In this document: piece by piece, positions 4,546-42,496 of the stretch | Numbering within the stretch: the first letter of the stretch is position 1 | Layout of the letters: each line of letters begins with the position of its first letter | NCBI RefSeq assembly: GCF_024223415.1 | Contig: NZ_CP100500.1 | Reading direction: 5' to 3' (one strand) | Source of the DNA: Escherichia coli | Lineage (GTDB): Bacteria > Pseudomonadota > Gammaproteobacteria > Enterobacterales > Enterobacteriaceae | DNA: 64,000 nucleotides | Made by a program: the position numbers and the translations under genes | The notes under the pieces: generated by a model | What the model saw: the letters and a program-made list of their open reading frames with translations, nothing else | Databases searched by the model: none | Told to the model about the DNA's origin: nothing

Positions 4546-4879
4546 GGGAGTTATTCTAGTTGCGAGTGAAGGTTTTGTTTTGACATTCAGTGCTGTCAAA
4601 TACTTAAGAATAAGTTATTGATTTTAACCTTGAATTATTATTGCTTGATGTTAGGTGCTTATTTCGCCATTCCGCAATAATCTTAAAAAGTTCCCTTCTA
4701 TTTACATTTTGAAACATCTATAGCGATAAATGAAACATCTTAAAAGTTTTAGTATCATATTCGTGTTGGATTATTCTGCATTTTTGGGGAGAATGGACTT
4801 GCCGACTGATTAATGAGGGTTAATCAGTATGCAGTGGCATAAAAAAGCAAATAAAGGCATATAACAGAGGGTTAATAAC
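4546..4879. promoter_or_regulatory. Divergent micF/ompC control region (OmpR-regulated promoters expected)
   Basis: AT-rich ~330-bp intergenic region between micF and ompC starts; individual binding sites not mapped here. Confidence 0.5.
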
Positions 4880-5992
4880 ATGAAAGTTAAAGTACTGTCC
4901 CTCCTGGTCCCAGCTCTGCTGGTAGCAGGCGCAGCAAACGCTGCTGAAGTTTACAACAAAGACGGCAACAAATTAGATCTGTACGGTAAAGTAGACGGCC
5001 TGCACTATTTCTCCGACAACGATAAGGTTGATGGCGACAAGACCTACATGCGTCTTGGCTTCAAAGGTGAAACTCAGGTTACTGACCAGCTGACCGGTTA
5101 CGGCCAGTGGGAATATCAGATCCAGGGCAACGCTCCTGAAAGCGAAAACAACTCCTGGACCCGTGTGGCATTTGCTGGTCTGAAATTCCAGGACGTTGGT
5201 TCTTTCGACTACGGTCGTAACTACGGCGTTGTTTACGACGTAACCTCCTGGACCGACGTGCTGCCAGAATTCGGTGGCGACACCTACGGTTCTGACAACT
5301 TCATGCAGCAGCGTGGTAACGGCTTCGCGACCTACCGTAACACCGACTTCTTCGGTCTGGTTGACGGCCTGAACTTTGCTGTTCAGTACCAGGGCAAAAA
5401 CGGTAGCGTAAGCGGCGAAGGCATGACCAACAACGGTCGTGATGCTCTTGAGCAGAACGGTGACGGTGTTGGTGGTTCTATCACTTATGACATCGGTGAA
5501 GGCTTCAGCTTCGGTGGTGCGATCTCCAGCTCCAAACGCACCGCAGAGCAGAACAACAGTGCTCGTTTCATCGGTAATGGTGATCGTGCAGAAACCTACA
5601 CTGGTGGTCTGAAATACGACGCTAACAACATCTACCTGGCTGCTCAGTACACCCAGACTTATAACGCAACTCTGGCTGGTGATTTAGGCTGGGCGAACAA
5701 AGCCCAGAACTTTGAAGTGGTTGCCCAGTATCAGTTCGACTTCGGTCTGCGTCCTTCTGTTGCTTACCTGCAGTCCAAAGGTAAAAATCTGAATGCCAAC
5801 ATCGCTGGTCGTACTTACGACGACGAAGATCTGGTGAAATATGTTGATGTTGGTGCTACCTACTACTTCAACAAAAACATGTCCACCTATGTTGATTACA
5901 AAATCAACCTGCTGGACGACAATAACTTCACCCGCGCTGCTGGCATCAACACTGATGACATCGTAGCTCTGGGTCTGGTTTACCAGTTCTAA
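4880..5992 (+). CDS. ompC: Outer membrane porin OmpC
   Basis: 370-aa ORF, signal peptide [21 protein letters not shown], porin motifs, C-terminal ...LGLVYQF; strong SD (gaggg) upstream. Confidence 0.95.
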
Positions 5993-7159: not shown

Positions 7160-7232
7160 AGCGCAAGATTGTTGGTTTTTGCGTGATGGTGGCCGGGCAG
7201 ACTAAAGGCTATCCTTAACCAGGGAGCTGATT

Positions 7233-8297
7233 ATGAAAAACGCCACATGCTTAACTGACGATCAACGCTGGCAATCTGTCTTAGCCCGCGACCCGAATGC
7301 CGACGGCGAATTCGTTTTCGCCGTGCGCACCACAGGCATCTTTTGCCGTCCGTCTTGCCGCGCCAGACATGCTTTGCGGGAAAACGTCTCCTTCTACGCA
7401 AATGCCAGCGAGGCACTCGCCGCCGGATTTCGCCCCTGCAAACGCTGCCAACCTGATAAAGCCAATGCCCAGCAACATCGGTTGGATAAAATCACCCACG
7501 CGTGTCGACTGCTGGAACAGGAAACGCCTGTAACGCTGGAAGCCTTAGCCGACCAGGTGGCGATGAGTCCGTTCCATCTGCATCGGTTGTTTAAAGCGAC
7601 TACCGGAATGACGCCTAAAGCCTGGCAACAGGCCTGGCGCGCTCGCCGTTTGCGCGAATCGCTGGCGAAAGGGGAGAGCGTGAAGACGTCTATTCTTAAT
7701 GCCGGATTCCCCGACAGCAGCAGTTACTACCGCAAAGCCGATGAAACGCTGGGCATGACGGCTAAACAATTCCGTCACGGTGGCGAAAATCTGGCGGTGC
7801 GTTACGCGCTGGCTGATTGTGAGCTGGGTCGTTGCCTGGTGGCAGAAAGCGAGCGGGGGATTTGCGCGATATTGCTGGGCGATGATGACGCGACACTAAT
7901 CAGCGAGTTGCAGCAGATGTTTCCCGCTGCCGACAACGCGCCTGCCGATCTGACGTTTCAGCAACATGTGCGTGAAGTGATCGCCAGCCTCAATCAACGC
8001 GATACGCCGCTGACGTTACCGCTGGATATTCGCGGCACTGCTTTTCAGCAACAAGTCTGGCAGGCACTGCGCACGATACCTTGCGGTGAAACCGTCAGTT
8101 ATCAGCAACTGGCTAACGCCATCGGCAAACCGAAAGCGGTACGGGCCGTTGCCAGTGCCTGTGCCGCCAACAAGCTGGCTATCGTAATTCCCTGTCATCG
8201 AGTGGTCCGTGGTGATGGCACACTTTCCGGTTACCGCTGGGGCGTGTCGCGTAAAGCGCAACTGCTGCGCCGCGAAGCTGAAAATGAGGAGAGGTAA
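7233..8297 (+). CDS. ada: Ada: O6-methylguanine-DNA methyltransferase / transcriptional regulator
   Basis: 354-aa ORF; N-terminal Cys cluster (FCRPSCRARHA), AraC-type HTH, C-terminal PCHRV active site. Confidence 0.9.
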   Translation: MKNATCLTDDQRWQSVLARDPNADGEFVFAVRTTGIFCRPSCRARHALRENVSFYANASEALAAGFRPCKRCQPDKANAQQHRLDKITHACRLLEQETPVTLEALADQVAMSPFHLHRLFKATTGMTPKAWQQAWRARRLRESLAKGESVKTSILNAGFPDSSSYYRKADETLGMTAKQFRHGGENLAVRYALADCELGRCLVAESERGICAILLGDDDATLISELQQMFPAADNAPADLTFQQHVREVIASLNQRDTPLTLPLDIRGTAFQQQVWQALRTIPCGETVSYQQLANAIGKPKAVRAVASACAANKLAIVIPCHRVVRGDGTLSGYRWGVSRKAQLLRREAENEER

Positions 8298-16097: not shown

Positions 16098-18580
16098 AAC
16101 TCAGTCGTCGTAGCTTTATGAAAGCTAACGCCGTTGCGGCCGCTGCGGCGGCTGCCGGTCTCAGCGTGCCGGGCGTTGCCCGCGCCGTTGTTGGTCAGCA
16201 GGAAGCCATTAAATGGGACAAAGCGCCGTGCCGTTTCTGCGGTACTGGTTGCGGCGTTCTGGTCGGAACGCAGCAGGGGCGTGTGGTGGCCTGTCAGGGC
16301 GACCCGGACGCACCGGTTAACCGTGGCCTGAACTGCATTAAGGGCTATTTCCTGCCCAAGATCATGTACGGTAAAGACCGTTTGACGCAGCCGCTGCTGC
16401 GTATGAAAAACGGTAAATATGACAAAGAAGGCGAATTTACCCCAATCACCTGGGATCAAGCCTTCGATGTGATGGAAGAGAAATTCAAAACCGCCCTGAA
16501 AGAAAAAGGGCCGGAATCGATCGGTATGTTCGGTTCTGGTCAGTGGACTATCTGGGAAGGTTATGCCGCGTCCAAGCTGTTTAAAGCGGGCTTCCGTTCG
16601 AACAACATCGACCCGAACGCGCGTCACTGTATGGCGTCGGCAGTAGTTGGCTTTATGCGTACCTTTGGTATGGATGAGCCGATGGGCTGCTATGACGACA
16701 TCGAGCAGGCTGACGCGTTTGTGCTGTGGGGTGCAAACATGGCGGAGATGCACCCGATCCTCTGGTCACGCATCACTAACCGTCGTCTCTCTAACCAGGA
16801 CGTCACCGTGGCGGTGCTTTCAACCTACCAGCATCGTAGCTTCGAGCTGGCGGATAACGGCATCATCTTTACGCCACAGTCTGACCTGGTGATCCTGAAC
16901 TACATCGCCAATTATATCATTCAAAACAATGCGATAAATCAGGACTTCTTCAGCAAACACGTTAACCTGCGCAAAGGGGCGACGGACATCGGCTACGGTT
17001 TACGTCCGACCCATCCGCTGGAAAAAGCAGCGAAGAATCCGGGTTCTGACGCCTCCGAACCGATGAGCTTTGAAGATTACAAAGCCTTCGTTGCTGAGTA
17101 TACGCTGGAAAAAACCGCTGAAATGACTGGCGTACCAAAAGATCAGCTGGAACAACTGGCGCAGCTGTATGCCGATCCGAACAAGAAAGTCATCTCCTAC
17201 TGGACGATGGGCTTCAACCAGCATACTCGTGGCGTGTGGGCCAACAACCTGGTCTACAACCTGCACCTGCTGACCGGCAAAATTTCCCAGCCGGGTTGCG
17301 GTCCGTTCTCCCTGACCGGGCAGCCTTCCGCGTGTGGTACTGCGCGTGAAGTGGGCACCTTTGCTCACCGTCTGCCTGCGGACATGGTGGTAACTAACGA
17401 GAAACATCGTGATATCTGCGAGAAGAAGTGGAATATCCCGAGCGGCACCATTCCGGCAAAAATCGGTCTGCACGCGGTGGCACAAGACCGTGCGCTGAAA
17501 GACGGCAAGCTGAATGTTTACTGGACCATGTGTACCAACAACATGCAGGCCGGGCCGAACATTAATGAAGAGCGTATGCCGGGCTGGCGCGATCCGCGCA
17601 ACTTCATCATCGTCTCCGATCCGTATCCGACAGTCAGTGCGCTGGCAGCGGACTTGATCCTGCCGACCGCAATGTGGGTAGAGAAAGAGGGCGCTTACGG
17701 TAACGCCGAACGCCGTACTCAGTTCTGGCGTCAGCAGGTACAGGCGCCAGGCGAAGCGAAATCGGACCTCTGGCAGTTAGTCCAGTTCTCCCGCCGCTTC
17801 AAAACTGAAGAAGTATGGCCGGAAGAGCTGCTGGCGAAGAAACCGGAACTGCGTGGCAAAACGCTGTACGAAGTTCTGTATGCCACCCCCGAAGTGAGCA
17901 AATTCCCGGTATCCGAACTGGCGGAAGATCAGCTGAACGATGAATCACGCGAGCTGGGCTTCTATCTGCAAAAAGGGCTGTTCGAAGAGTACGCATGGTT
18001 TGGTCGCGGTCACGGTCACGATCTCGCGCCGTTTGATGACTACCACAAAGCGCGCGGTCTGCGCTGGCCGGTGGTGAACGGTAAAGAAACGCAGTGGCGT
18101 TACAGCGAAGGTAACGACCCGTACGTGAAAGCGGGCGAAGGCTATAAGTTCTACGGTAAACCGGATGGTAAAGCGGTGATCTTCGCGCTGCCGTTCGAAC
18201 CGGCGGCAGAAGCACCGGATGAAGAGTACGACCTGTGGCTCTCTACCGGACGCGTCCTGGAGCACTGGCACACCGGCAGTATGACTCGCCGTGTGCCGGA
18301 ACTGCACCGCGCCTTCCCGGAAGCGGTCCTGTTTATTCACCCGCTGGATGCGAAAGCGCGCGATCTGCGCCGTGGCGACAAAGTGAAAGTGGTTTCTCGC
18401 CGTGGCGAAGTGATCTCGATTGTCGAAACGCGCGGTCGTAACCGTCCGCCGCAGGGCCTGGTGTACATGCCGTTCTTCGACGCCGCACAGCTGGTTAACA
18501 AACTGACGCTGGATGCGACCGATCCGCTCTCGAAAGAGACGGACTTCAAGAAGTGCGCGGTCAAACTGGAGAAGGTGTAA
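16094..18580 (+). CDS. napA: Periplasmic nitrate reductase catalytic subunit NapA
   Basis: 828 aa, Tat signal ([20 protein letters not shown]), N-terminal Cys cluster. Confidence 0.95.
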
Positions 18581-31176: not shown

Positions 31177-31183
31177 GGATTTT

Positions 31184-31196
31184 TGGTCCACGAGAG
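31184..31196. other. Putative distal att site (degenerate repeat of tRNA-Pro 3' end)
   Basis: tggtccacgagag versus tRNA 3' end tggtcggcacgagagg; imperfect, so the exact boundary is uncertain. Confidence 0.35.
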
Positions 31197-31257
31197 TAGT
31201 TTAATTGAGTGTGTAACCACATGATTTTAAATAATATGCTTGATTCAACTTTTAAAT

Positions 31258-31284
31258 CGTATAACCAAACGTATAACTAAAATC
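31258..31284. promoter_or_regulatory. Putative integrase arm-type repeats (left island end)
   Basis: cgtataaccaaacgtataactaaaatc; same motif recurs at 42233-42290 next to int. Confidence 0.4.
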
Positions 31285-31447
31285 ATTTGCTGAAAAAGTG
31301 TACAATTTAAAGGCGAGTTTTCCCAGAGGTTTATTAAACTACGAAAATTTCGTAGTTTGTGAATATATTCCGGCCTGCTGGTTAACAGTCCTCAGATGTG
31401 AGGGATGTAGCCAGCGCAATTTTGCGCTTTGCTTTAATCTCAGTCAG

Positions 31448-31729
31448 TTATCGCCGTAACCGCTCCGGCTTCTTCCAGTGGTACGTAATTTTTTCTTTCT
31501 CCCGATACAGTTCAACGCGGCGATTGTAGGCCAGCATTTCCAGAACGCGGATCCGTATGTCGCGCATATCCACGCCGTTAAGCTCAATACCGTCACGGCG
31601 CATCACCTCAGCAACCACACGCGCATAATTTTCGGCGGTCACGCTGTCCGGCTGCGTGGCCTGTTCGTCAGCCTGCTGGCTGATTCCGGCAACGCGACGG
31701 ATTAATCGCAGTAGTTCGGCTTCTGTCAT
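31448..31729 (-). CDS. Hypothetical protein, cos-adjacent
   Basis: 93-aa ORF, plausible composition; no family recognised. Confidence 0.45.
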   Translation of the reverse strand: MTEAELLRLIRRVAGISQQADEQATQPDSVTAENYARVVAEVMRRDGIELNGVDMRDIRIRVLEMLAYNRRVELYREKEKITYHWKKPERLRR

Positions 31730-31761
31730 TGTGCCCCCATCGTTCTGATAGTCTGGTGTCG

Positions 31762-31836
31762 TCGGGTCCTTCCTGGAATTATGGCCCGTTACGGGGCGTC
31801 GACCTCGCGGTTTTTCGCTATTTATGAGATTTTTTG
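31762..31836 (+). other. Lambda-like cos site, copy 1 (cosQ-cosN-cosB start, + orientation)
   Basis: cgggtccttcctgg...cccgttacg|GGGCGTCGACCT|cgcggtttttcgctatttatgag resembles lambda ACGGGTCCTTTCCGG...GGTTACG|GGGCGGCGACCT|CGCGGGTTTTCGCTATTTATGAAAA (lambda sequence from memory). Confidence 0.6.
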
Positions 31837-32285
31837 AGGGGGTGGTTGTTGTTTAATTGTTTGGTATATCTAATTGATAAGTAAGGTAAAAATAAAATAA
31901 ATACAACAACCTTACGGTGTATTTTGATGTCATTAATGTGAAAAAATTCAATGATATCAAATGGTTTTGTAAAAACATATGGTTGTTGTATCGCGTATTT
32001 GATGGCGTAACAGAAAGTGATTTTTAACTTTACCGCTCTGTAACTACGGATTATTCCATGCTGGCACGGAGAACGGCTACGGCATGACGCCACCCAGCCT
32101 ATACAGAACAGTAAAGCCGATAAATTGTTAATCACGCGCAGCAATGCGTGTGATTTTTGCACACTTCCGGTTAACGGGTACGATGTCCGGTTTGTTTGTA
32201 CATTTTTTGCACATGTCCGGTTCGCAGAAAGCATGTTTTTATATTTTTCATATAGTTAACTTGCAGAGAAACCGGACATGGATCC

Positions 32286-32360
32286 CGAAAAATTTTCATA
32301 AATAGTGAAAACGCGCGAGGTCGACGCCCCGTAACGGGTCCACATGCCGGAAAGGACCCG
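32286..32360 (-). other. Lambda-like cos site, copy 2 (inverted; reads cosQ-cosN-cosB on the minus strand)
   Basis: Minus strand reads cgggtcctttccggcatgtggacccgttacg|GGGCGTCGACCT|cgcgcgttttcactatttatgaaaattttt; closer to lambda than copy 1. Confidence 0.65.
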
Positions 32361-32384
32361 CAAAAAAAGCCGGATTTCTCCGGC
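32361..32384 (-). terminator. Terminator after the capsid-module operon
   Basis: Minus strand gccggagaaatccggc followed by a T-run. Confidence 0.5.
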
Positions 32385-32390
32385 CTTGTC

Positions 32391-32804
32391 TCAGATGGTT
32401 TTCAGTATGCGATCGATGTTGCCGTCATCGACCGGGTTTCTGCCATCGTATGCCATGCCAGCTGATACGGCTTTCGGGCTGTGCATGTCCATAAAGTTTT
32501 CAAAGGCTGAAGTAAGCTGTGGTGCAACCTTCGGGCGTTCCTGCTCTATGGTCATGCTAAGGATGCTTTTAGCCGTACCAACATCGATACAAGGCACGTT
32601 AGCCATTGCACGTAACAGCGGCTGGTAGTCGTCAGATTCATGAAGCGCCATAATCGCATCAGCGCGCTGCTTGTCCTGTTCTTCCAGTTTGTTTAGTCGG
32701 TGTATGGCCTCGTAGGTTGATAAACCTCTGTCAGCCATTGCCCGCGCTTCGGCTTTAAATTTACTCGCCAGCGGTAGCGTCATGATACTTTCATTCGTTG
32801 CCAT
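32391..32804 (-). CDS. Hypothetical protein, last gene of the capsid-module operon
   Basis: 137-aa ORF immediately downstream of the gpD-like gene; no family recognised. Confidence 0.55.
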   Translation of the reverse strand: MATNESIMTLPLASKFKAEARAMADRGLSTYEAIHRLNKLEEQDKQRADAIMALHESDDYQPLLRAMANVPCIDVGTAKSILSMTIEQERPKVAPQLTSAFENFMDMHSPKAVSAGMAYDGRNPVDDGNIDRILKTI

Positions 32805-32816
32805 CGTTCCCCCTGC

Positions 32817-33152
32817 TTATCGGGCCAGCGGCTGAACGGATACGCCGGAACCCGCAAAGGCGGCGCATTTTTTCGCATCGGTGTCGACGCTGTCAGGCCA
32901 GTTAACGGCGGCAATATTGAATATCCCCGTTTTGTAACACTGTGCTGATTTCTGCTTTGACGTGTCCACGGGGTGCGAAGTCAGATAAACAGCTTTGCCA
33001 GATTCCTGACCATCCCACGCCTTAAACTCGCCATTGTCTGCCAGCATCAGCGGGGTAAATTCCTGAATAACGCCAGCATCAGCGGCAAAATGTACCAGCG
33101 TCGTGGATACCTGCTGGCTGCCTGCAAATAACTCAATATATGGAGCGTCCAT
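32817..33152 (-). CDS. Head decoration protein, lambda gpD-like
   Basis: 111 aa; conserved blocks shared with lambda gpD as recalled (TPLMLxD...AWDG...YKxGxF...WP...KKxAFAG). Confidence 0.65.
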   Translation of the reverse strand: MDAPYIELFAGSQQVSTTLVHFAADAGVIQEFTPLMLADNGEFKAWDGQESGKAVYLTSHPVDTSKQKSAQCYKTGIFNIAAVNWPDSVDTDAKKCAAFAGSGVSVQPLAR

Positions 33153-33163
33153 AGAATCCCCCG

Positions 33164-34219
33164 TTAAGCAATTTTGACGGTAACAAATTTGCGAATATCT
33201 GCCGGTACCGGCTGCGGTGCGCTGTGCGTCTGCACGTACTCAATCGCCGGATCGCCGTCCTCAATCCAGTTTTTCGGGTAGTACATGTTTTGCGTTGCGC
33301 CCGTTCTTACCGCTTCCTGATCCATAATCGCACCATATGCCACAAGCCCTTTATTGTTGGTGTTACCCAGGACAAGCAAATCAGGCTCAAGGAAATATTT
33401 TTCGGTGCCGTCGCTGTCAGTGTATTTGCCGGAATAGACGATAAGGGCCAGATCACCAAGATAGCCTTTAAAGCTCACCACTTCGCCCAGGTTTTTACAG
33501 GCCAGCTCGGCGGCGGATTCTGAGCCACGGTAAAGATCGTACAGTTCACGGAATTTTTTAAAGCTGCGTAATGTGCGCCATGCCTCACCGCCCATAATCA
33601 TGACGTTGGCGGGGCAACCTGCCTGATCAGCATAAAGCTCGATGTCATAGATTGGGTCGTGCATGTCTTTATCCTGCTGGGACCATTTTTTACCACTGGC
33701 CTGCTGTATGATGCAGTTTTCCGGTATTTTCCAGTCGATTTCATAGCGTTCTATGCCTTCGCCCTCAATGATGTTTTTTCCGGTCGTTACCGCATTCACC
33801 GCCAGCCATTCCACGCGCGCCTTAATGGCGTTTATCTGGCGGCGCATGTTGCCAGTAATCAGGCGCATACGGCGGTAAGTTGGATCGTTAAGCTGTGCCG
33901 GATCTTCTCCAGCCATGCGCATGATGGTCTTTGTTGGATCGATTTCGTGCTTTGGCTTCATGTAGCCTGGTTTAATCGTGCTGGTTTCGTACCCTTTATC
34001 GCGCTGGACCTGACTACCCACCATAGGAGAACAGAACGCTGACATCGTAACCTCTTCAATGTCCAGGGTGTCCAGCATGATGTTTTGGGTGTTGAAGGTC
34101 GCCACGTTCGGGAAAAACAGCGTGGTAAACAGCGGACTAAATTTAAATTCCGAAATATCCCCGCGATTCAGGTACGCGAAAAGCTGGTTAGTTGTAAGTG
34201 CCGTTGCTTTGCCTGTCAT
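33164..34219 (-). CDS. Major capsid protein, lambda gpE-like
   Basis: 351 aa; blocks shared with lambda gpE as recalled (FKFxPLF, PGYMKPKHE, DPxYRRMR, YSGxY, YPKNW, GDPA). Confidence 0.8.
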   Translation of the reverse strand: MTGKATALTTNQLFAYLNRGDISEFKFSPLFTTLFFPNVATFNTQNIMLDTLDIEEVTMSAFCSPMVGSQVQRDKGYETSTIKPGYMKPKHEIDPTKTIMRMAGEDPAQLNDPTYRRMRLITGNMRRQINAIKARVEWLAVNAVTTGKNIIEGEGIERYEIDWKIPENCIIQQASGKKWSQQDKDMHDPIYDIELYADQAGCPANVMIMGGEAWRTLRSFKKFRELYDLYRGSESAAELACKNLGEVVSFKGYLGDLALIVYSGKYTDSDGTEKYFLEPDLLVLGNTNNKGLVAYGAIMDQEAVRTGATQNMYYPKNWIEDGDPAIEYVQTHSAPQPVPADIRKFVTVKIA

Positions 34220-34425
34220 TATTCACCTCCGTGAACCTGATTGATACCCAGCGCCGCACGTAAATAGGTACGCACCTGCCAGCCTGTTGACGGCTCAACC
34301 ATCGCCAGCGGATCAAGTCCTGCCGCAATGCCTGCTTTTACATTCTGCTGGTGGCGTTCCTTGAGCGCCTCCACGATGTCGGGGCTTATGTAGACCGTCA
34401 CCCCGCCTTTTTTCTCTTCTGCCAT
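34219..34425 (-). CDS. Hypothetical small protein, first gene of the capsid-module operon
   Basis: 68-aa ORF whose stop overlaps the gpE-like start. Confidence 0.45.
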   Translation of the reverse strand: MAEEKKGGVTVYISPDIVEALKERHQQNVKAGIAAGLDPLAMVEPSTGWQVRTYLRAALGINQVHGGE

Positions 34426-34592
34426 AGTCAGAAATTCCTCTTTGACTTAAAAAATCATAACTGGATGTTCATCCAGTCCTGATTATAATCATGATTGCAT
34501 TTTGCGCAACAATATTGAGTTACGTTGCAAATTATGAAATGATTATCCCGATCATGTGTGCCAGTGCACCATAAAAAACCTCGTATACAAAA

Positions 34593-34660
34593 GCCCGATA
34601 AGCCCCCTGTGACCTTATCGGGCTTTTTTTAGGCGTAAAAAAGCCGGATTGCTCCGGCTT
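34593..34660. terminator. Pair of terminator hairpins between the finO-like gene and the capsid operon
   Basis: gcccgataagccccctgtgaccttatcgggc + T-run, and agccggattgctccggct preceded by an A-run. Confidence 0.5.
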
Positions 34661-34683
34661 CGTCTCTTCATGTGGTCAGGGTT

Positions 34684-35268
34684 TTATGCTTTCCGTACGC
34701 CCGAGGAACTGGCATTTTTCAGAATAATATTATGCCCTGCTGGTGGCTTACCGTTATGCTTATTTTCTGCCTTCATGTTTCTGCGCTCCTGCTGTTTTTT
34801 CTTCATCTCATCCAGTCGCTTCCCCGCGTTCAACTGGTGCTCCTGTGTCACCTCCCCGCACGGATGGCCTTTCAGGTCGTAACGCACGCCACCAGCCATC
34901 AGGGAACGGTAATATCGCACTGAACTGACATAATACGCCAGCGTTGCGCGAAGCGCTCCCTGACCTAATGAAATACCTCTCGCAGTAATATCCTCCATCA
35001 GGTCATCAAATATGCCAACCTTAAGCGGTCTGGGCGATTCCTGGCTGAAAAGTTCAGGCCAGAGCGCGGCAAGGCGTTCAACGCGTCTGATATTTTTTTT
35101 CCGGCTCTTTTCTGATTTGCGTTTTGCTGCCGTCTTCTGTTGTGTTTTCTGCTCGCGGCTCTGCTTTTGCGCTGGTGTGGTTTTATCCGGCTGTTCAGCC
35201 TCCTGCGTCTTTTTCTGCGGTGTGCCGTATATGCCTTTTGGTTTTCGGTTAATGGTCAGCTTTGTCAT
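34684..35268 (-). CDS. FinO/ProQ-domain RNA-binding protein with a basic N-terminal extension
   Basis: Likely start MTKLTINRKPK (SD ggggagaa upstream); C-terminal region shares blocks with the ProQ N-terminal FinO domain as recalled (LWPELF, RPLKVGIFDDL, DLxGxPCGE). Confidence 0.65.
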   Translation of the reverse strand: MTKLTINRKPKGIYGTPQKKTQEAEQPDKTTPAQKQSREQKTQQKTAAKRKSEKSRKKNIRRVERLAALWPELFSQESPRPLKVGIFDDLMEDITARGISLGQGALRATLAYYVSSVRYYRSLMAGGVRYDLKGHPCGEVTQEHQLNAGKRLDEMKKKQQERRNMKAENKHNGKPPAGHNIILKNASSSGVRKA

Positions 35269-35347
35269 GTTCTCCCCCTTTGTGCTGTTCCACCAGCGGC
35301 ATCTGCTACCCCGTGTCGCTCCCGCTGGTGTCGTGTTTCCCCGCCTG

Positions 35348-35668
35348 TTAATAACCGTCATCATTTACGTTATCAGGGTAATCACGCCATATTTCATCAG
35401 TAAGCGACGGTAGCCCCATCTGTTGTATTGTCCTGTCTGCGGCCCTTCTGACTGCGTGAACATCATAACGGTTTTCAGGTATCGGGCGCTTTGCCTTCCT
35501 GATACATTCCCTTGCTCTCATTGCCGCAAGTTCTCTGTGCCTGTCTTCCTGAAGAGTAATCATCACATCCTGCCACCTTCTGGCAGCCCGTCGCCACAGT
35601 CCCCTGCTCTCGAGTTCTTCTGCTGTCGCGTCGCTTATTGTCCGGTTCTTCGGTGTGCTGTTGTTCAT
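35348..35668 (-). CDS. PerC-family transcriptional activator-like protein
   Basis: 106 aa with AEELESRGLWRRAARRWQDVM, resembling the conserved PerC/Pch motif as recalled. Confidence 0.5.
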   Translation of the reverse strand: MNNSTPKNRTISDATAEELESRGLWRRAARRWQDVMITLQEDRHRELAAMRARECIRKAKRPIPENRYDVHAVRRAADRTIQQMGLPSLTDEIWRDYPDNVNDDGY

Positions 35669-35685
35669 GTTGCTCCCCGCCTGAT

Positions 35686-36096
35686 TCAGAAGGGTATATC
35701 ATCTCCGTAGGGGTCATCGCCTCCCGCTGGTGGCTCATTCCCCTGTGTGCCTGTGGTTTTGCGTCTGTTCCCGCCATGACGTGCCGCACGCGCACTGATT
35801 ACGCTGTCTGCGATAACCTGCCAGCCCTGCCGCGTTTCCCCGTTCTGTCCGGTCCACTGGCTCACCTGCATGTTACCCGCCACGCTCAGGAGTTCACCTT
35901 TGCGGTGCTTTGCCAGTGCTTCGGCCTGTCTGCCAAACGCCAGCACAGATAACCACATCGTCGCCGTTCCGTCATCTGCCTGGCTGCACGGAAGGGGGAC
36001 CGCCATACTCGCCATCGCCATTTGTGTCCCCTTGCTGGTGGTCTTTAACTGCGGGTCAGCCACCAGCCGCCCGTAAGCCGCTATCTGTGCTGTCAT
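35686..36096 (-). CDS. ssb: Single-stranded DNA-binding protein (phage-type SSB)
   Basis: 136 aa; OB-fold pattern (GRLVADPQLK...WLSVLAFGRQAE...) and acidic C-terminal tail GDDIPF typical of SSB. Confidence 0.7.
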   Translation of the reverse strand: MTAQIAAYGRLVADPQLKTTSKGTQMAMASMAVPLPCSQADDGTATMWLSVLAFGRQAEALAKHRKGELLSVAGNMQVSQWTGQNGETRQGWQVIADSVISARAARHGGNRRKTTGTQGNEPPAGGDDPYGDDIPF

Positions 36097-36344
36097 GCTG
36101 TATGCTCTCCGGTTTTAACGTTGATGGTTGTCACCTGTTCCGCTCCGGCAATCTCCCGTTCTGTCAGCGTGGCAAAATTTGCCGCTACCGTTGTCATGAA
36201 TGCGCTTATCAGTTCGGGATGTGCTTTCGCGTATCCTTCTCCCGCGTGGCGGTCTATCGTTCTGATTGCCACCTTTAAGGCGTGCTCTGTCATGTCTAAC
36301 GCTTTATATTTTGGCGCTGTCTTATCTCTGGTTTTTCTGTTCAT
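36093..36344 (-). CDS. Hypothetical protein
   Basis: ORF 36093-36374; likely start MNRKTRDK, just downstream of the iterons. Confidence 0.45.
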   Translation of the reverse strand: MNRKTRDKTAPKYKALDMTEHALKVAIRTIDRHAGEGYAKAHPELISAFMTTVAANFATLTEREIAGAEQVTTINVKTGEHTA

Positions 36345-36560
36345 TCCCCACCACTCCCCACTTTTGCTCCCCACTTTTTAAATTCCCCACTTGCTCCCCA
36401 CCTCGTTTTTTGAGTGAATCTAATGCTTTGTTTTTCATTGCGTTTTTTACTCCCCACTTTTTTGGATGTATACAGGTGGGAAAGTGGGGAATTATGTTTC
36501 AATTTTGTTAAATTCCCCACTCTCCCCACTTTTACTACCCACTTTTTACAGTGGGTAAAC
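36344..36560. repeat. Iteron cluster, putative island replication origin
   Basis: At least nine direct and inverted copies of (a/c)TCCCCAC(TTTT), e.g. actccccactttt, gctccccactttt, attccccacttg, plus inverted gtgggaaagtgggga, next to the primase/helicase gene. Confidence 0.6.
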
Positions 36561-37961
36561 ATCATCCCCATCGACACAAATCACGCCGTCTTTTTCCAGC
36601 TTGGACAGCCAGCGCCGGAAGTGCTTCATCTCATACCCCAGCTTTTTCATATCGTCGCGGAGAAGGGCGATAGTGCATGGCTCTTTGTGTGCCGTCCGCG
36701 TTCTGATGCACTGCCATAGCGCGGTATGGTTTTCCGTCTTGTTGCCTGCCTCCTCGATGCGCTCCAGTTCAACGGGAGAGCGCGGCTTATCAACCACCAC
36801 CAGCGACGTGATTAACTCCCCGTCAGCGTCGGTAAAAAGCTCCACCACGCGTAAATCGTAGGCGGCCTCTTTCAGTTCCTCCGCGTCCTTCATTTTGGTG
36901 CAGGATATAACCAGGGCTTTACTGTCTGCACCTTCTCGGCGAATACGGTATTCAGCGTCCAGAGATGCACGAAATGCACTGGAACCACGCGCCCCCTTTG
37001 TTTCATCCTTGCCGGAATGGTGGACCACCAGCACCGTGGCCCCTGTGCGTCGTTTCAGGTCGTCACATCCACGGATAAACGCCCCCATATCCCGCGCGTC
37101 ATTTTCATCATTACCGCCAAAGCAACGCGCCAGCGTATCCAGAATAATCATGCGTACCGGTTTACCCGTTTCCCGTTCAACCTGGCGGGAAGCGATAACC
37201 ATTTCATCAACATCAAGCGGGGCTGCCGGAAAAATCGGGCGGTTTACCAGGTACAGATTTTTCACCCGTTCATCATTAACGATTTCCCATGCCTTGATAC
37301 GACGGGGGACACCAATGCCACCTTCACCGACAACATACATCACCGAACCATGCGCCACCCTGCGGCCTCCCCAGTGGCGCCCCGTGGCAACATGACACGC
37401 CCAGGAACACGCAAGGAATGATTTATAGGAACCGCTCGCACCGTATGTGCTGCACAATGAATTAGCCGGAATCACGCCCTTAACGACATAATCAAGCTGT
37501 GTGTCGTATCCTGCAGATCCAATGCTCATGGGTAGCGTGGTTTTTCGCTGGCTGTATTGCTCATCAGTAAGTATTTCCCCGCGCTCTGCCTGTTCGCGGA
37601 TCCGTTGCAGGTAGTCGCGCCATTCCTCCCGCTTCTGGCTGTGCATTCCCTCGGGGTAATAACTCGCATCCCGTATACCTGCCGCCGCCAGTTTTTGCCC
37701 GATGGCATTAATATTTGATGGCTTGATGTGGCCTGCCTTGTACAGCCGGACACAATAGCGACCATCGTCGATAATTTTCAGGTCTGCCAGTTCGTCAAGC
37801 TGACTGTCTCCCAGCCATACTGGCGGGACGTTATCGCCAGCAAGTCGCCCGTCCTGTTCCTGCCATTGTTTTGCGTGCGCCCAGGCATCACTACCTGCAA
37901 AAATAATGACTTCGGTCATTTTGTTGTGTGGCTGTTTTTTTAAGTTCGGTGCCAGTTTCAT
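36546..37961 (-). CDS. Replication protein: putative primase/helicase (RecA-like NTPase, AAA_25/RepA-like)
   Basis: 471 aa; P-loop-like GASGSYKSF and Walker B-like MIILDTLARCF; position typical of satellite pri-rep genes. Confidence 0.55.
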   Translation of the reverse strand: MKLAPNLKKQPHNKMTEVIIFAGSDAWAHAKQWQEQDGRLAGDNVPPVWLGDSQLDELADLKIIDDGRYCVRLYKAGHIKPSNINAIGQKLAAAGIRDASYYPEGMHSQKREEWRDYLQRIREQAERGEILTDEQYSQRKTTLPMSIGSAGYDTQLDYVVKGVIPANSLCSTYGASGSYKSFLACSWACHVATGRHWGGRRVAHGSVMYVVGEGGIGVPRRIKAWEIVNDERVKNLYLVNRPIFPAAPLDVDEMVIASRQVERETGKPVRMIILDTLARCFGGNDENDARDMGAFIRGCDDLKRRTGATVLVVHHSGKDETKGARGSSAFRASLDAEYRIRREGADSKALVISCTKMKDAEELKEAAYDLRVVELFTDADGELITSLVVVDKPRSPVELERIEEAGNKTENHTALWQCIRTRTAHKEPCTIALLRDDMKKLGYEMKHFRRWLSKLEKDGVICVDGDDVYPL

Positions 37962-38257
37962 TTTTTATCCCTGAATCCGTTAATCATGGTTTTCATCTTC
38001 TGAATATTGGCGCGTGCTTTCTCCCTGCTGGTTGGTTTACTGCGGGGCGCTGCCTGTACCAGAGAAAAATCACGCCGGAACTGATAAACAGGCATCACGC
38101 AGTCATATTCGTAGCCATCACGGCGGTAAGTGATGCGCCGTTCTGCCACGCCTTTAATCGTTACCGTACCGCCGTAGTTATCACGGAAAATATCGCCGGG
38201 ACGGATTTCAGGCCGAGCGGGGCCGCTGGCAGTAAAGCCAGAATTTTTCTTTTTCAT
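37958..38257 (-). CDS. Hypothetical protein
   Basis: 99-aa ORF overlapping the primase start (ATGA). Confidence 0.45.
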   Translation of the reverse strand: MKKKNSGFTASGPARPEIRPGDIFRDNYGGTVTIKGVAERRITYRRDGYEYDCVMPVYQFRRDFSLVQAAPRSKPTSREKARANIQKMKTMINGFRDKK

Positions 38258-38261
38258 GGTT

Positions 38262-38462
38262 TTATTTTCCTGTCAGTGATTCCGGCTTTATTCCGGCGCG
38301 AATACAGGCTTCAGAAAAAAAAGCCAGAGAACCAATAACCTCATTATTTCTAAGGCGGCATTGCGATTTCACTTTCCCTTTATCCAGGAATATCAAAACG
38401 CGCCCCGTATAATCAGATGGCACATTAAGCACTACAGGTAAGTGCGCTTCATGATTATTCAT
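38262..38462 (-). CDS. Hypothetical small protein
   Basis: ORF 38262-38531; likely start MNNHEAH (66 aa). Confidence 0.35.
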   Translation of the reverse strand: MNNHEAHLPVVLNVPSDYTGRVLIFLDKGKVKSQCRLRNNEVIGSLAFFSEACIRAGIKPESLTGK

Positions 38463-38742
38463 GGCTAACCACCTCCTGGAATTTTCTTCTGTAACGCGCC
38501 TCTGCCACATATTCAGCATAGTCCGACGCAATATTGAGAATATCGCTACCCGTTCCTGAATGTTCGGCGGTTTCCAGTAAAAAACATGCAGCTTTTACCA
38601 TGTCAGCAACACATAACAGCGCAATATCTGTATCTTCCGGTGTGCCATCAAATTCCTGTTTCAGGGCATTAAAACGATCATCACGCATAACCCCATATTC
38701 ACAATCAGCAATCAGGATGGCTTTGGCCTCATTCAGTGCCAT
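38455..38742 (-). CDS. Hypothetical protein (C-terminal, protein-like part of a 595-aa stop-free frame; true start uncertain, could extend to about 38898)
   Basis: Last ~95 codons of frame 38455-40242 are acidic and helix-like; upstream part looks non-protein-like. Confidence 0.4.
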   Translation of the reverse strand: MALNEAKAILIADCEYGVMRDDRFNALKQEFDGTPEDTDIALLCVADMVKAACFLLETAEHSGTGSDILNIASDYAEYVAEARYRRKFQEVVSHE

Positions 38743-38896
38743 ATCAGCGGTAAGCTGTGCGTAGGCCAGCAAATGCGGGATTATTGCCCCTGTATATTCC
38801 GGCTCTCTGATAATGTGGTCGGATGTGTTGATTAAATAGTTTGTGCGAAAAATGCACCTGTAACCATCAGTTAACAACGGATATACAGGGGGGACC

Positions 38897-39067
38897 ATGA
38901 ATGATAAGGGGGTGCCGTTTGATGTGCTCCTGCAAAAGCTGAATGCTGCACGCGCCGCAAGGGAACGTGAGCGCATGAGTAATAACCCTGTCCCTCCTGA
39001 ATTACCTCGCCCTGAACATTTTCCGCTTGAGGATTTCATCAGGGGACGAATCCGAACAAAACGATAA
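38897..39067 (+). CDS. Small ORF a (56 aa); paralogous to ORF c
   Basis: MNDKGVPFDVLLQKLNAARAARERERMSNNPVPPELPRPEHFPLEDFIRGRIRTKR; G-rich SD-like sequence upstream; shares the FPLE-FI / RERER motif with ORF c. Confidence 0.3.
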   Translation: MNDKGVPFDVLLQKLNAARAARERERMSNNPVPPELPRPEHFPLEDFIRGRIRTKR

Positions 39068-39310
39068 CCGCCGCCGTGATATGAGGCATCACGACGCAAT
39101 GCATTACAGGTGAGCACCATGAACAAATCCATATTATCCCCCACAGTTCTGGACGTAAACACAAAGCAGCGACAGATATTATTACGCGCCGTCATTAAAG
39201 CCAGACACGAGAAATTAAACCAAATCTTAAAATAAGATACGCCGCTACCGCTGTAAGTCTTCATCAGAAACAGAAAACGCCAGAGCAGATGAGCACGGAG
39301 GTAACTCTTT

Positions 39311-39505
39311 ATGAAAATAAACGAATCAGGGGAAATTACCGAAGCCAGCGTGGTACGCCAGCGGAGGCGGGAACGACGGGTACGGCCCCCCGCGCCATCC
39401 GATAATTTCCCGCTTGAGCGCTTCATCAGTGAACGGCCCCGCATACGCTGGAACGGCACAACCCCATACCCCGAGGAGAGACAGACAAAAAACAAACAGC
39501 GATGA
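39311..39505 (+). CDS. Small ORF c (64 aa); paralogous to ORF a
   Basis: SD ggagg 8 nt upstream; contains RRRERRVRPPAPSDNFPLERFISERP. Confidence 0.3.
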   Translation: MKINESGEITEASVVRQRRRERRVRPPAPSDNFPLERFISERPRIRWNGTTPYPEERQTKNKQR

Positions 39506-39681
39506 TGAAATCTGGAGGCCAATACCATCACGCAGCCATCAGGAGATTGCTGACGCGCTTCCTGTTCGCTGGTGGCCTCGATGGTAATCACGCGCGGTTG
39601 TGCAGTGCTCAGGGCGATAAAACGCCACACAAAGGCCGTTTGTGTGTGCGCAAGGCGTGGGGTATGCTGTGTTCCAGCCAT
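39460..39681 (-). CDS. Icd-like (host cell division inhibitor-like) protein; 3' end undefined because the frame has no stop until 38455
   Basis: Strong SD (aggag, 9-nt spacer) before ATG at 39681; MAGTQHTPRLAHTQTAFVWRFIALS...TSEQEARQQ... resembles Icd-like proteins of satellite elements as recalled. Confidence 0.35.
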
Positions 39682-39808
39682 AATCGTTACTCCTGTTAAC
39701 GGTTTGGTTAGACGCCCTGCATGTGTGCCACCACTGCGGGGCGTTGTTTTTGTGGTGTCATTGGTATACATTGTCACCTTAATGGCATTATCACTACAGA
39801 GGTTTATC

Positions 39809-39985
39809 ATGTCAACCAATGACAACAAAAAAGAAAGATTTTCCGTACAACTACGCCTAGACGCAGATTTGTTCGAGCGTTTAAGTATTGCCATGAAAGA
39901 AGATGGCGACGATAACCGATCTGGATGGATCAAAAGGCTTTTACGACGCGAATTAGATAAACGCGGCATTGAGTCAAAAAGCTGA
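39809..39985 (+). CDS. Ribbon-helix-helix (Arc/Mnt-like) DNA-binding protein
   Basis: 58 aa; ERFSVQLRLDADLFERLSIAMKEDGDDNRSGWIKRLLRRE parallels the Arc repressor pattern (beta-strand then two helices) as recalled. Confidence 0.5.
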   Translation: MSTNDNKKERFSVQLRLDADLFERLSIAMKEDGDDNRSGWIKRLLRRELDKRGIESKS

Positions 39986-40078
39986 CAGCCAACCAGCAAG
40001 CCAGCACACTGATCACATTGCCCACCAGCCGCAAATGTGGCATTGTTGGTGATGCTTTTGTTTTCCCTTGTTCCCACT

Positions 40079-40108
40079 GGCGACCCTTTTGCGGTCGCCT
40101 TTGTTTTG
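40079..40108 (+). terminator. Rho-independent terminator after the RHH gene
   Basis: ggcgacccttttgcggtcgcc + tttgtttt. Confidence 0.55.
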
Positions 40109-40202
40109 CCTGTTATCCGGCAATTGTGGCGCTTCGCCACACGGTTTATATAACCCCACTGCTCAGATTCATTTTTTGCGCAGTAGGTTAATTGTTCGCA
40201 AG

Positions 40203-40231
40203 GGCGGCTCCTTATCGGGGCCGCTTTTTTC
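40203..40231 (+). terminator. Second plus-strand terminator before alpA
   Basis: gcggctccttatcggggccgc + tttttt. Confidence 0.5.
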
Positions 40232-40256
40232 GTGTTTGTCATATCTGTGATACCCG

Positions 40257-40463
40257 TTAAGCAGCCGTTCCGCGTGCTTCCTGTTCGCGTTCTTTCTGCC
40301 AGGCCAACACATCATCCTCATACCATCCGCGACGGCGTAAACCAACGCGAAAACCCTGCGGAAATTCTCCGGCGTTGATCATGCTTTGCAGCGTGCTGTC
40401 TGCCTTGATGTGGATAATTTTTTTTACTTCCTGGCGAAAGATAATTTTTCTGATTGCTTCCAT
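40257..40463 (-). CDS. alpA: AlpA-family regulator / excisionase-like protein
   Basis: 68 aa; HTH region LQSMINAGEFPQGFRVGLRRRGWYEDDVLAW typical of AlpA-family proteins. Confidence 0.7.
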   Translation of the reverse strand: MEAIRKIIFRQEVKKIIHIKADSTLQSMINAGEFPQGFRVGLRRRGWYEDDVLAWQKEREQEARGTAA

Positions 40464-40593
40464 CGTGATTTACCTTGTGAATCCGGTGTATTCCGGTGAC
40501 AAATACGGTAAATCATCGGATATGGGTAAAAACAGTTCCCACCGTTTTTAAACGGTATACACCGTTTTTTATATTGATGATTTGAAATGGAAT

Positions 40594-40622
40594 TATAAAA
40601 AAAGCGGCATTTCTGCCGCTTC
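40594..40622 (-). terminator. Terminator between the int-proximal ORF and alpA
   Basis: Minus strand agcggcagaaatgccgct followed by a T-run. Confidence 0.45.
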
Positions 40623-40630
40623 CAGGATTG

Positions 40631-40882
40631 TTACCGCCATTTTTTGGGCCTGCCTCCGATCTTCATAGATGCCGGACGTACGACCTTATCAATACTTACC
40701 GCCAGATTTCTGGAAGCGCCACGGGATACCAGAAAATCTACTACCTGTTTTTTTGATGGGGCCGTCGTCCTGTCCTCCGGATCGTAGGTTGACCAAAATT
40801 CATGCTGAACCATCAGGGCCAGTTGCAGCCCGTCGCAATTGCATCTGATATTTTTTTGCATCTTAACGGTTTCATGTTTCAC
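40631..40882 (-). CDS. Hypothetical protein between int and alpA
   Basis: 83-aa ORF with basic C-terminus (GGRPKKWR). Confidence 0.4.
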   Translation of the reverse strand: MKHETVKMQKNIRCNCDGLQLALMVQHEFWSTYDPEDRTTAPSKKQVVDFLVSRGASRNLAVSIDKVVRPASMKIGGRPKKWR

Positions 40883-40959
40883 GGCCTTGTCGTTAAATTT
40901 GATGCAATTATACGACGGTTTTACATGGTTTTCGTAGTTTTTACTGGTTTTCTGTACAG

Positions 40960-42219
40960 CTACACGGCTCGGATACCCCTTTTACCACTGGCGAGGGTTA
41001 CGCCCGTCGCCGCAGCCTCGACAAATTCGCCCCACCAGCGCATCAGCACGATGCGTTTTTCTATGTAGTTGCTCCGGTTGTATGCCCGTCTAACTTCGTT
41101 GGTGTCGACGTGGGCAAGTGCCGCCTCTATTACGTCCGGCTCGAATCCTTCCTCGTTCGCTGCTGTGCTGAATATGGCGCGTAATCCATGAGACACCAGC
41201 ACGCCAGCGAATCCCATACGCCGCAATGCTGCGTTAGCTGTCTGGCTGTTCATCGGCTGCTGTGGGTCTTTCAGACTTGGGAAAACGTAATTGCGGTGGT
41301 GGCTGATTGGTTTCATGGCCTCCAGCACCGCCATAGCCTGACCGGAAAGCGGGATAACGTGATCCCTGCGCATCTTCATGCGTCCGGCAGGTATCGTCCA
41401 TTGCTTCGCGTCCAGGTTGATTTCATCCCACCGCGTTGATGACGCTTCGGCGGGACGGGTTACGGTCAGTAACTGCCATTCAATCAGTAATCTGGTCTGC
41501 CGTTCTGTTGCCGATACTGATAAAGCCTGCATAAGCTCGGGCAGCTGTTCGGGGCGGATTGTTGGCATATGTTTTTTTACAGGTGAGGGAAACGCCTTAC
41601 GCACATTCATAGCCGGATTGGCATCAATCAGCCCACTGTTGGCGGCGTAATCCATTACCTCATTAACGCGCTGTAAAACCCGCTTGAGTGTTTCCAGGTT
41701 GCCGCGCTCCTTGATGGGGGTAAGCACTTCAACGAACCTTCGGGCGGTGAGGGTATCTATTGGCGTGTTGCCGATGAACGGGAATACATATTTATCCAGC
41801 GAACGCCAGATGTCTTTAATCGTGTTGGGGGCCAGATTCTGGCTGATTTTCACCTGGTACCATGCCGCCGCCACATTTTCGAACGTGTTCCCTTGTCTTC
41901 GGGCCTCTGTCTCTCTTTTTTGCCTCTCGTGGTCCTGCGGGTCAGTTCCGGCACTGATTAACGTCCTGTACTCGCTACGGCGTTTTCTGGCATCAGCCAG
42001 GGAAACATCTTCAAGCGATCCAAAACTCAGCAATATTCTTTTTTTGTCCGATGGTCGGTAGTAGGAAAATCTCCAGAGTTTTGATCCAGACGGTTTGACC
42101 AGGAGAAAAAGCCCTCCGCCGTCCTGCAGGGTGTACTCCTTTTGCGCTGGTCTGGCTGCTTTGATCTGCACTGTGGTTAATGGGTGTGTTTTTCTCGCCA
42201 TATGTCTATGATTCCACAC
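40960..42219 (-). CDS. int: Tyrosine recombinase / integrase (P4-type)
   Basis: 419 aa adjacent to tRNA-Pro; N-terminal arm-binding region (LFLLVKPSGSKLWRFSYY) and C-terminal catalytic domain (HGLRAIFST...LAHV...RAYNRSNY). Confidence 0.9.
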   Translation of the reverse strand: MWNHRHMARKTHPLTTVQIKAARPAQKEYTLQDGGGLFLLVKPSGSKLWRFSYYRPSDKKRILLSFGSLEDVSLADARKRRSEYRTLISAGTDPQDHERQKRETEARRQGNTFENVAAAWYQVKISQNLAPNTIKDIWRSLDKYVFPFIGNTPIDTLTARRFVEVLTPIKERGNLETLKRVLQRVNEVMDYAANSGLIDANPAMNVRKAFPSPVKKHMPTIRPEQLPELMQALSVSATERQTRLLIEWQLLTVTRPAEASSTRWDEINLDAKQWTIPAGRMKMRRDHVIPLSGQAMAVLEAMKPISHHRNYVFPSLKDPQQPMNSQTANAALRRMGFAGVLVSHGLRAIFSTAANEEGFEPDVIEAALAHVDTNEVRRAYNRSNYIEKRIVLMRWWGEFVEAAATGVTLASGKRGIRAV

Positions 42220-42232
42220 GAAAAAACAGGGT

Positions 42233-42290
42233 TTTAGTTATACGGCTTTAGTTATACGTCAGCCCGTATAACTAAACGTATAACTAAAAA
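42233..42290. promoter_or_regulatory. Cluster of putative integrase arm-type sites
   Basis: ttagttatacg x2 (inverted) and cgtataactaaacgtataactaaaa between int and the tRNA. Confidence 0.4.
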
Positions 42291-42419
42291 ATCCGGCTGA
42301 TAGCTTATAAATCCGGTGATGTTCGGTGACTAAAAAACATAAAAAAACCCGCCAATCAAGTGATTAGCGGGTTATCCCTGTCTTATCCGGTGCTTTCCGG
42401 TGATATCCGGTGGGCGATT

Positions 42420-42496
42420 TGGTCGGCACGAGAGGATTTGAACCTCCGACCCCCGACACCCCATGACGGTGCGCTACCAGGCTGCGCTACGTGCCG
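42420..42496 (-). tRNA. proL: tRNA-Pro (proL-type)
   Basis: Reverse complement reads CGGCACGTAGCGCAGCCTGGTAGCGCACCGTCATGGGGTGTCGGGGGTCGGAGGTTCAAATCCTCTCGTGCCGACCA (77 nt, cloverleaf-compatible). Confidence 0.9.

Follow-up and report, generated by a model that had tools for sequence, protein, structure and literature searches.

The 64-kb stretch of the Escherichia coli chromosome analysed here (64,000 nucleotides of contig NZ_CP100500.1, assembly GCF_024223415.1; hereafter the window) covers the region around yejO, proL and yejM, and contains an island of ~11.2 kb, spanning about 31189-42417, that lies to the left of a tRNA-Pro(GGG) gene and carries its main genes all on the minus strand. The feature under study is a short repeated motif, TCCGGTG, found in this island just upstream of the regulatory gene alpA and again between the integrase gene (int) and the tRNA. 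The tRNA-Pro(GGG) gene (proL; 42420-42496, minus strand), the sole tRNA found by ARAGORN, is the integration target. Alignment of the island ends with the E. coli K-12 empty site identified a short segment, TTTGGTC, common to the empty site and to both junctions: the tRNA-proximal one (42418-42424), where it overlaps the CCA end of tRNA-Pro, and the distal one (31182-31188). Integration thus took place at the 3' end of tRNA-Pro(GGG) through a short identical crossover segment and, since the crossover maps within TTTGGTC, all of 42202-42417 is island DNA and constitutes the int-proximal arm of attP. At the distal end, to the left of 31182-31188, the native proL terminator is kept, and a rho-independent proL terminator supplied by the island is predicted at 42346-42373 (minus strand). 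The int gene (40960-42201, minus strand) encodes a P4-family tyrosine integrase of 413 amino acids with the Pfam domains Arm-DNA-bind_3 (E=5e-23), Phage_int_M and Phage_integrase, and with 34% identity to P4 Int (E=1e-80). The alpA gene (40257-40463, minus strand) encodes, according to its RefSeq product name and homology, a 68-amino acid winged-helix protein of the AlpA/Vis family, which we propose here as the protein binding TCCGGTG.

Exact copies of TCCGGTG are located on the plus strand at 40482, 40492, 42312, 42386, 42396 and 42406, and variants with a single change at 42322 (TTCGGTG) and 42292 (TCCGGCTG). The eight island copies share strand and orientation, and fall into three groups within which their starts are 10 or 20 bp apart. 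The alpA-proximal pair (40482-40488 and 40492-40498), a proposed AlpA operator that reads CACCGGA on the alpA-coding strand, precedes the alpA ATG by 19-35 nt and the Shine-Dalgarno sequence, AAGG, by 5 nt. Group A (42292-42328; TCCGGCTG at 42292, TCCGGTG at 42312 and TTCGGTG at 42322, with spacings of 20 and 10 bp) directly adjoins the int-proximal arm-type repeats described below and possibly overlaps the int promoter. Group B (42386-42412) comprises the exact copies at 42386, 42396 and 42406, and ends 5 bp short of the crossover, between the 3' end of the tRNA and the island-borne terminator. Both groups, which like the alpA-proximal pair are assigned to the minus strand and are proposed as binding sites of AlpA acting as a recombination directionality factor, therefore fall between the arm repeats (42233-42288) and the crossover (42418-42424). 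A perfect match to the IHF consensus, AATCAAGTGATTA, occupies part of the loop and stem of the terminator that separates them (42354-42366, plus strand); it is one of six perfect matches to WATCAANNNNTTR in the window and is not kept in relatives outside E. coli. These relatives carry a different terminator hairpin, AACCCGCATTCTCACTGAGTTTGCGGG, which is nearly invariant between genera, loop included.

A sequence-only reading of this DNA had reported the motif as an octamer, present twice just upstream of alpA and at least five times beside the tRNA, and had interpreted it as a shared binding motif linking the attachment region to alpA expression. The two copies upstream of alpA (40482 and 40492) were recovered as described, and the tRNA-proximal set amounts to four exact copies and one near copy in 42311-42412, plus a degenerate one at 42292. 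The octamer itself holds for half of the exact copies, with three of the six followed by an A (40492, 42312 and 42396), as is the variant TTCGGTGA at 42322, but not for the other half, which lack it. As to the placement of the pair at the alpA promoter, the sites lie beside the alpA ribosome-binding site and within a possible leader hairpin, and no promoter was placed there by the scan.

The number of TCCGGTG copies in the whole window (15, versus 7.0 +/- 2.9 in shuffled sequences) is weak evidence taken alone, and spacing and orientation were hence used as the test. Same-strand pairs exactly 10 bp apart were observed three times, and not once in 300 second-order Markov simulations. A scan for phased chains of 6-mers returned only one other non-trivial three-unit chain in the island, a run of T-tracts at 40917-40955. 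The distal arm (31189-31330) presented no YCGG-type site by eye, and neither the exact TCCGGTG search nor the phased 6-mer scan identified any there. The repeats have no counterpart in the K-12 empty site, which contains no copy of the motif, and are hence a property of the island.

The int-proximal arm also contains four copies of a 12-bp repeat, CGTATAACTAAA, two inverted and two direct (42233-42288), 32-87 bp upstream of the int start codon. Exact instances start at 42233 and 42247 on the minus strand and at 42265, 42277 and 31270 on the plus strand, the last of these being preceded by a copy with one mismatch at 31258, so that the distal arm presents two tandem plus-strand repeats (CGTATAACCAAA and CGTATAACTAAA; 31258-31281) ~70 bp from the crossover. 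Only ~0.008 exact 12-mers of this sequence are expected in 64 kb, and no arm-type repeat is present in the K-12 empty site. The coordinates and counts agree with the presence of this repeat at both island ends, as first reported, and its designation as arm-type is supported by two further observations. The order of elements in the island (int start, 12-bp arm repeats, about 130 bp, core and two tandem arm repeats) reproduces that of phage P4, the record of which annotates 12-bp attP arm repeats by the int start and two tandem copies beyond the core. Furthermore, all six repeat copies of a sister E. coli lineage, four on the int side and two in the distal arm (CGTATAGCTTAA and CGTGTAGCTAAA, at the place of the two tandem repeats of the window), have G rather than A at position 7, and the integrase of this lineage, 82-83% identical, presents many substitutions in its N-terminal arm-binding domain. 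In other genera, the repeats are replaced at the same positions by an unrelated GGGACTAGA type, as opposed to the TTAGTTATAC type. The sequence comparisons hence support CGTATAACTAAA as the putative arm-type site of the P4-family integrase.

The conservation of TCCGGTG was analysed in related elements identified through an integrase scan of species-representative genomes. Distant relatives were reached by anchoring on the integrase rather than on AlpA; a word-indexed protein search with AlpA returned near-identical E. coli proteins only, and a tblastn search of AlpA against phage records produced no match. The scan yielded ~25 Enterobacterales loci, nearly all at tRNA-Pro(GGG), of which 13 encode an AlpA 48-64% identical to that of the window. 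The relatives compared encode integrases 68-82% identical to that of the island and encompass about ten genera. In most relatives, the alpA ribosome-binding site is immediately preceded by two ACCGG[AT] or TTCGGT sites (coding strand) at a 10-bp spacing. Most also present phased sites in the attachment arm at ~10, 20 and 30 from the tRNA end and further sites at ~93-124, with the island-borne terminator between the two sets. Beside the first arm repeat, CCGGA is found in 17 of 21 aligned sequences and ACGGA in two more.

A search for exact phased 5-mers common to the alpA upstream region and the attachment arm proved too strict in most relatives, and the degenerate pattern YCGGW was used in its place with a background comparison. 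On the coding strand, YCGGW was observed 38 times in the attachment arms of relatives versus 9.0 expected, and 21 times upstream of alpA versus 2.9 expected, the relatives being phylogenetically non-independent and the P values of these enrichments consequently inflated. Sites in both locations share flank preferences (A at -1, W at +2 and +3) that are unlike those of background YCGGW, defining a family motif, AYCGGWWW, present in the attachment arm and just upstream of alpA. This motif remains unchanged across the switch of arm repeats from the TTAGTTATAC to the GGGACTAGA type, indicating that it does not track the arm-binding specificity of the integrase.

Exactly two loci, those of Escherichia albertii (L010) and Buttiauxella (L015), lack the motif both in the attachment arm and upstream of alpA. 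The recognition helices of the AlpA proteins encoded by these loci read SDSTLTEMVNKG and SRNALNAMIDAG, respectively, versus SDSxxQxMINAG in the others, and the association between motif loss and a changed AlpA helix yields a Fisher estimate of p about 0.03. The E. albertii locus maintains the 10/20-bp layout with CGTT cores in place of CGG; no convincing motif common to the alpA upstream region and the attachment arm was found in the Buttiauxella locus. The int-alpA gap of the E. albertii locus (4790-4940) additionally contains four tandem GGAGCCAATTT units, recurring every 11 bp, and a ~22-bp repeat, CATTATTTAAAGT(C/T)AGAAG, in three copies, which look like iterons or the operators of another regulator. 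Within E. coli, the int-alpA-tRNA segment was detected in 310 of 5,426 complete genomes (coverage >=80%), and diverged lineages keep the alpA-proximal sites, with one genome carrying a third 10-bp unit upstream of alpA.

The AlpA protein of the island is 31% identical to P4 Vis (E=3e-8), and a profile of its subfamily matches, at E=7e-10, PDB entry 8c3t, described as an AlpA family phage regulatory protein. The sequence-only reading had left open whether AlpA or the integrase binds the motif; the comparisons favour AlpA as the protein likely to recognize the repeats. They also uphold, at the level of sequence, the shared motif that had been proposed to link the attachment region to alpA, which draws support from the phasing of the repeats, their position in the attachment region, their conservation and their joint loss in relatives. 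We consider it probable, at roughly 65%, that the TCCGGTG repeats are AlpA sites through which AlpA acts both as an excision directionality factor and as an autoregulator.

According to this interpretation, AlpA monomers would assemble head to tail, one per helical turn, on the two arrays of the int-proximal attachment arm, one of them beside the arm-type sites and the other beside the crossover, with the IHF-like site and the terminator hairpin between them. We infer that AlpA binds these arrays and bends this arm, which would allow the integrase to bridge arm and core sites in the excision configuration. Occupation by AlpA of the pair that immediately precedes its own ribosome-binding site would in turn tie alpA expression to AlpA concentration. 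The sign of this autoregulation, and any effect on the int promoter, we can likewise only infer. Polo 1996 is said to have found the autoregulation of P4 Vis to be negative. AlpA has been reported to be required for excision and induction and to activate its own promoter in EcCICFT073, and to exert positive autoregulation in EcCIMP1 (PMC6092414, PMC11773190). In CP4So, AlpA acts as an excisionase (PMC5148205). The predicted architecture also agrees with that described for recombination directionality factors, which bind cooperatively and head to tail to direct repeats spaced by one helix turn (PMC7498355).

If correct, this interpretation would account for a requirement for AlpA in excision that leaves int transcription unaltered, through a direct role as a directionality factor. 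It would further provide a conserved candidate operator, AYCGGWWW in general and CACCGGA in this island, with units one helical turn apart in the attachment arm and in the alpA leader. AlpA has been described as a master regulator of Gram-negative phage satellites, and we found no mapped AlpA binding site in the accessible literature for phage-inducible chromosomal islands (PICIs). The type of control is ordinary and well understood from P4 Vis, 186 Apl and lambda Xis; it is not a new kind of system, and the general picture of direction control in tyrosine-recombinase elements would be unchanged.

Several observations weigh against this interpretation, in addition to the non-independence of the relatives. 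The AlpA of the window scores 17.6 bits for the Pfam Phage_AlpA model, under the 21-bit cut-off. One relative, a Citrobacter locus (L025, Citrobacter sp. FP75), is alone in having sites in its attachment arm and none within 60 nt of alpA. In an E. coli lineage of 78% identity, the attachment-arm sites are weaker (ACCGATG, TCCGATA) and one copy is absent; the sites are still 10 bp apart and the alpA-proximal ones stay strong. The weaker sites fit the relaxed specificity described for this class of proteins (PMC7498355), yet they represent the main internal inconsistency of the proposal. AlpA left the activity of the int promoter (Pint) unchanged in EcCICFT073 (PMC6092414). A consensus scan found no sigma-70 promoter on the alpA or int strand, and the term operator is hence an interpretive one. 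A perfect TATAAT seen by eye at 40597-40592 is paired with a poor -35 and is not kept in the sister lineage, and a TTTACA -35-like hexamer that is conserved in relatives between two attachment-arm sites corresponds to CTATCA in the window.

A further point on this side is that the alpA-proximal pair also fits an RNA hairpin (40466-40516, minus strand), in which UGAUUUACC (40516-40508) would pair with GGUAAAUCA (40474-40466). The second arm of this possible leader hairpin overlaps the Shine-Dalgarno sequence (40476-40473) and the two sites form the loop, with CCGG cores that can pair with each other. The pair could thus act in RNA, with the hairpin hiding the alpA ribosome-binding site and keeping AlpA translation low, in which case its likeness to the attachment-arm repeats would be secondary; such a role, which may coexist with DNA binding, seems to us possible and rather unlikely. 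The predicted structure has a minimum free energy of -16.4 kcal/mol (z = -2.5), and none of 200 shuffled sequences was as stable. The stem is retained with 100% pairing in a sister lineage (L005) through a compensatory swap from A-U to U-A, and loci from Brenneria (L017; z = -3.8) and Pectobacterium (L016; z = -3.2) have hairpins of their own enclosing the sites, the former with a stem that pairs the Shine-Dalgarno sequence and the latter with one ending just beside it. The compensation is nevertheless limited to a single pair and probably reflects one event, with no G-U evidence, and a DNA palindrome consequently fits the data equally well. Moreover, two loci (L019 and L026) show no significant structure yet keep the phased sites, and the hairpin leaves the six attachment-arm copies unexplained. 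The same arrays would remain unaccounted for if AlpA bound at the alpA-proximal sites were loaded onto RNA polymerase as a processive antiterminator, and not as a classical activator or repressor. This mode of action is documented for Pseudomonas aeruginosa AlpA, which recognizes a bipartite element, GGGACG-N5-GGTA, between the -35 and -10 and enables RNA polymerase to bypass terminators (PMC7969949, PMC9371919); the island operon is dotted with hairpins, and the activation reported for PICI AlpA came from measurements on downstream fusions (PMC6092414). Against its operation here, neither the promoter scan nor inspection by eye revealed a convincing -35/-10 pair flanking the two sites, and the AlpA of the window is only a distant relative of the family; we regard antiterminator loading as improbable.

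The possibility that another protein binds the repeats, be it the integrase (through a second class of arm sites or core-type sites), a host protein, the product of the 83-codon open reading frame orf83 or a helper-phage protein, appears very unlikely. Core-type sites of the integrase are expected where Group B ends, 5 bp from the crossover; a core-type function was ruled out because attB lacks the motif, and the integrase was rejected as the binder on this ground and because the motif is unchanged where the arm repeats switch type. The only other small open reading frame nearby, orf83, has no homologue in relatives outside E. coli, and was discarded because it is absent from relatives that keep the motif. 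The motif is unlike the IHF consensus, which occurs separately at 42354, and its loss tracks changes in AlpA. A non-functional origin by replication slippage of a 10-bp unit is hardly credible: the extra unit upstream of alpA in one E. coli genome shows that slippage does happen, but positions, phase and core are kept over about ten genera while spacer bases diverge, and the repeats occur at three separate places in one orientation.

A block of ~50 nt (40540-40575) is conserved between diverged island lineages. It contains CACCGTTTTT at 40540 and 40560, and a terminator-like hairpin on the plus strand (AAACGGTATACACCGTTT, followed by a T-run) in which the stem is kept and the loop varies between lineages. 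The block may terminate antisense transcripts heading towards the int side, or play a part in the control of alpA. In the Citrobacter locus (L025), a second, apparently degraded excisionase-like helix-turn-helix frame (5700-5805; …VSTVWRYAKTASFPKPYKLSKGVTVFDANLIRKW) lies directly upstream of alpA.

The proposal that AlpA serves as directionality factor and autoregulator can be set beside several known systems. Phage P4 shares with the island a homologous integrase (34%) and a homologous small regulator, Vis (31%), and differs in target tRNA, repeat sequences and cargo, the island having capsid and decoration genes and not sid or psu. The P4 sequence contains CGGA at 3973, 3983 and 3993, 10 bp apart by the arm repeats, in an orientation relative to int that appears opposite to that of the island, and GCACCGGATAAG upstream of vis. 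According to Cali 2004, Vis reportedly binds two boxes between int and the core. Binding of Vis to the attP region has been documented by electrophoretic mobility shift assay and footprinting (PMC2603039), and Vis represses Pint (PMC7286903). Phage 186 Apl, P2 Cox and lambda Xis resemble the island in using direct repeats 10-11 bp apart, bound cooperatively with bending, and Apl recognizes the same motif at its attachment site and in a promoter region (PMC7498355). Unlike the island protein, Apl and Cox are lysis-lysogeny switch proteins of full temperate phages, and their promoter arrays (seven sites for Apl) are located between face-to-face promoters and not beside their own ribosome-binding site. 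P. aeruginosa AlpA shares the family name, and the half-sites of the bipartite DNA element that it recognizes are separated by roughly one turn (PMC7969949); it differs as an antiterminator of chromosomal lysis genes with its element between -35 and -10, and has neither attachment sites nor an excision role.

A counterpart in gene content is the prototype of Gram-negative PICIs, EcCICFT073 (L091; NC_004431, 1377930-1389200), with which the island shares the order int, alpA, Icd-like, DUF4222, helicase/primase, SSB, PerC, capsid and decoration. It differs in its int and alpA alleles, its non-tRNA integration site and its motif. EcCICFT073 presents RACAAC arrays phased at exactly 10 bp (7188-7238, 5845-5875 and 17064-17084), and phased ACAA[ACG] sites occur in only three places over 17.4 kb, the interval from the int stop to alpA holding six, the region upstream of int four and the distal end three. 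An ACACAA pair (7457/7467) lies about 60-70 nt upstream of alpA. A 31-bp direct repeat, within which tandem GGTGTAGTTAAT repeats occur, is found at both ends of the element, with an array on the same side of each copy.

These by-eye observations and simple counts suggest that P4 and EcCICFT073 may each have a phased code of their own matching their Vis or AlpA allele. A broader reading would be that each AlpA allele has an allele-specific code of phased repeats in the attachment arm and alpA leader (CACCGGA in this island, the CGTT type in the E. albertii relative and RACAAC in EcCICFT073), with AlpA acting also on leader RNA. With the operator doubling as the loop of a hairpin that hides the ribosome-binding site, AlpA could act on DNA and on its own leader RNA, and RNA binding by P4 Vis has been reported in a secondary source (PMC2603039). 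We regard this combined reading as unlikely; if true, AlpA would combine the functions of direct excision directionality factor and master switch, with mutual insulation of co-resident satellites.

Besides int and alpA, the island contains orf83 and genes encoding Icd-like, DUF4222, RepA/AAA_25 helicase, SSB, PerC and ProQ/FinO proteins, together with morphogenesis genes for a lambda E-like major capsid protein and a gpD-like decoration protein. The genes match those of EcCICFT073 module by module, and its size and flanking attachment repeats are also PICI-like; the island is a phage satellite of the EcCICFT073 (PICI) type. The satellite's own capsid and decoration proteins are encoded at 32817-34219, and the small terminase gene of a sister island (L009, 9496-10080) is missing. 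The stretch at 31800-32390 presents no convincing open reading frame and may be decayed. At 38455-40242, RefSeq annotates a 595-amino acid Icd-like open reading frame that is probably an annotation artefact, since sister islands hold several short genes on both strands in that span, one of them YlcI/YnfO-like. Lastly, the run of T-tracts at 40917-40955 consists of four GGTTTT(A/C) units with a 10-bp period, located between the int stop codon (40960-40962) and orf83. These units could be phased A/T-tracts conferring intrinsic DNA curvature, or another binding array, and EcCICFT073 contains a six-unit phased array at the equivalent place.

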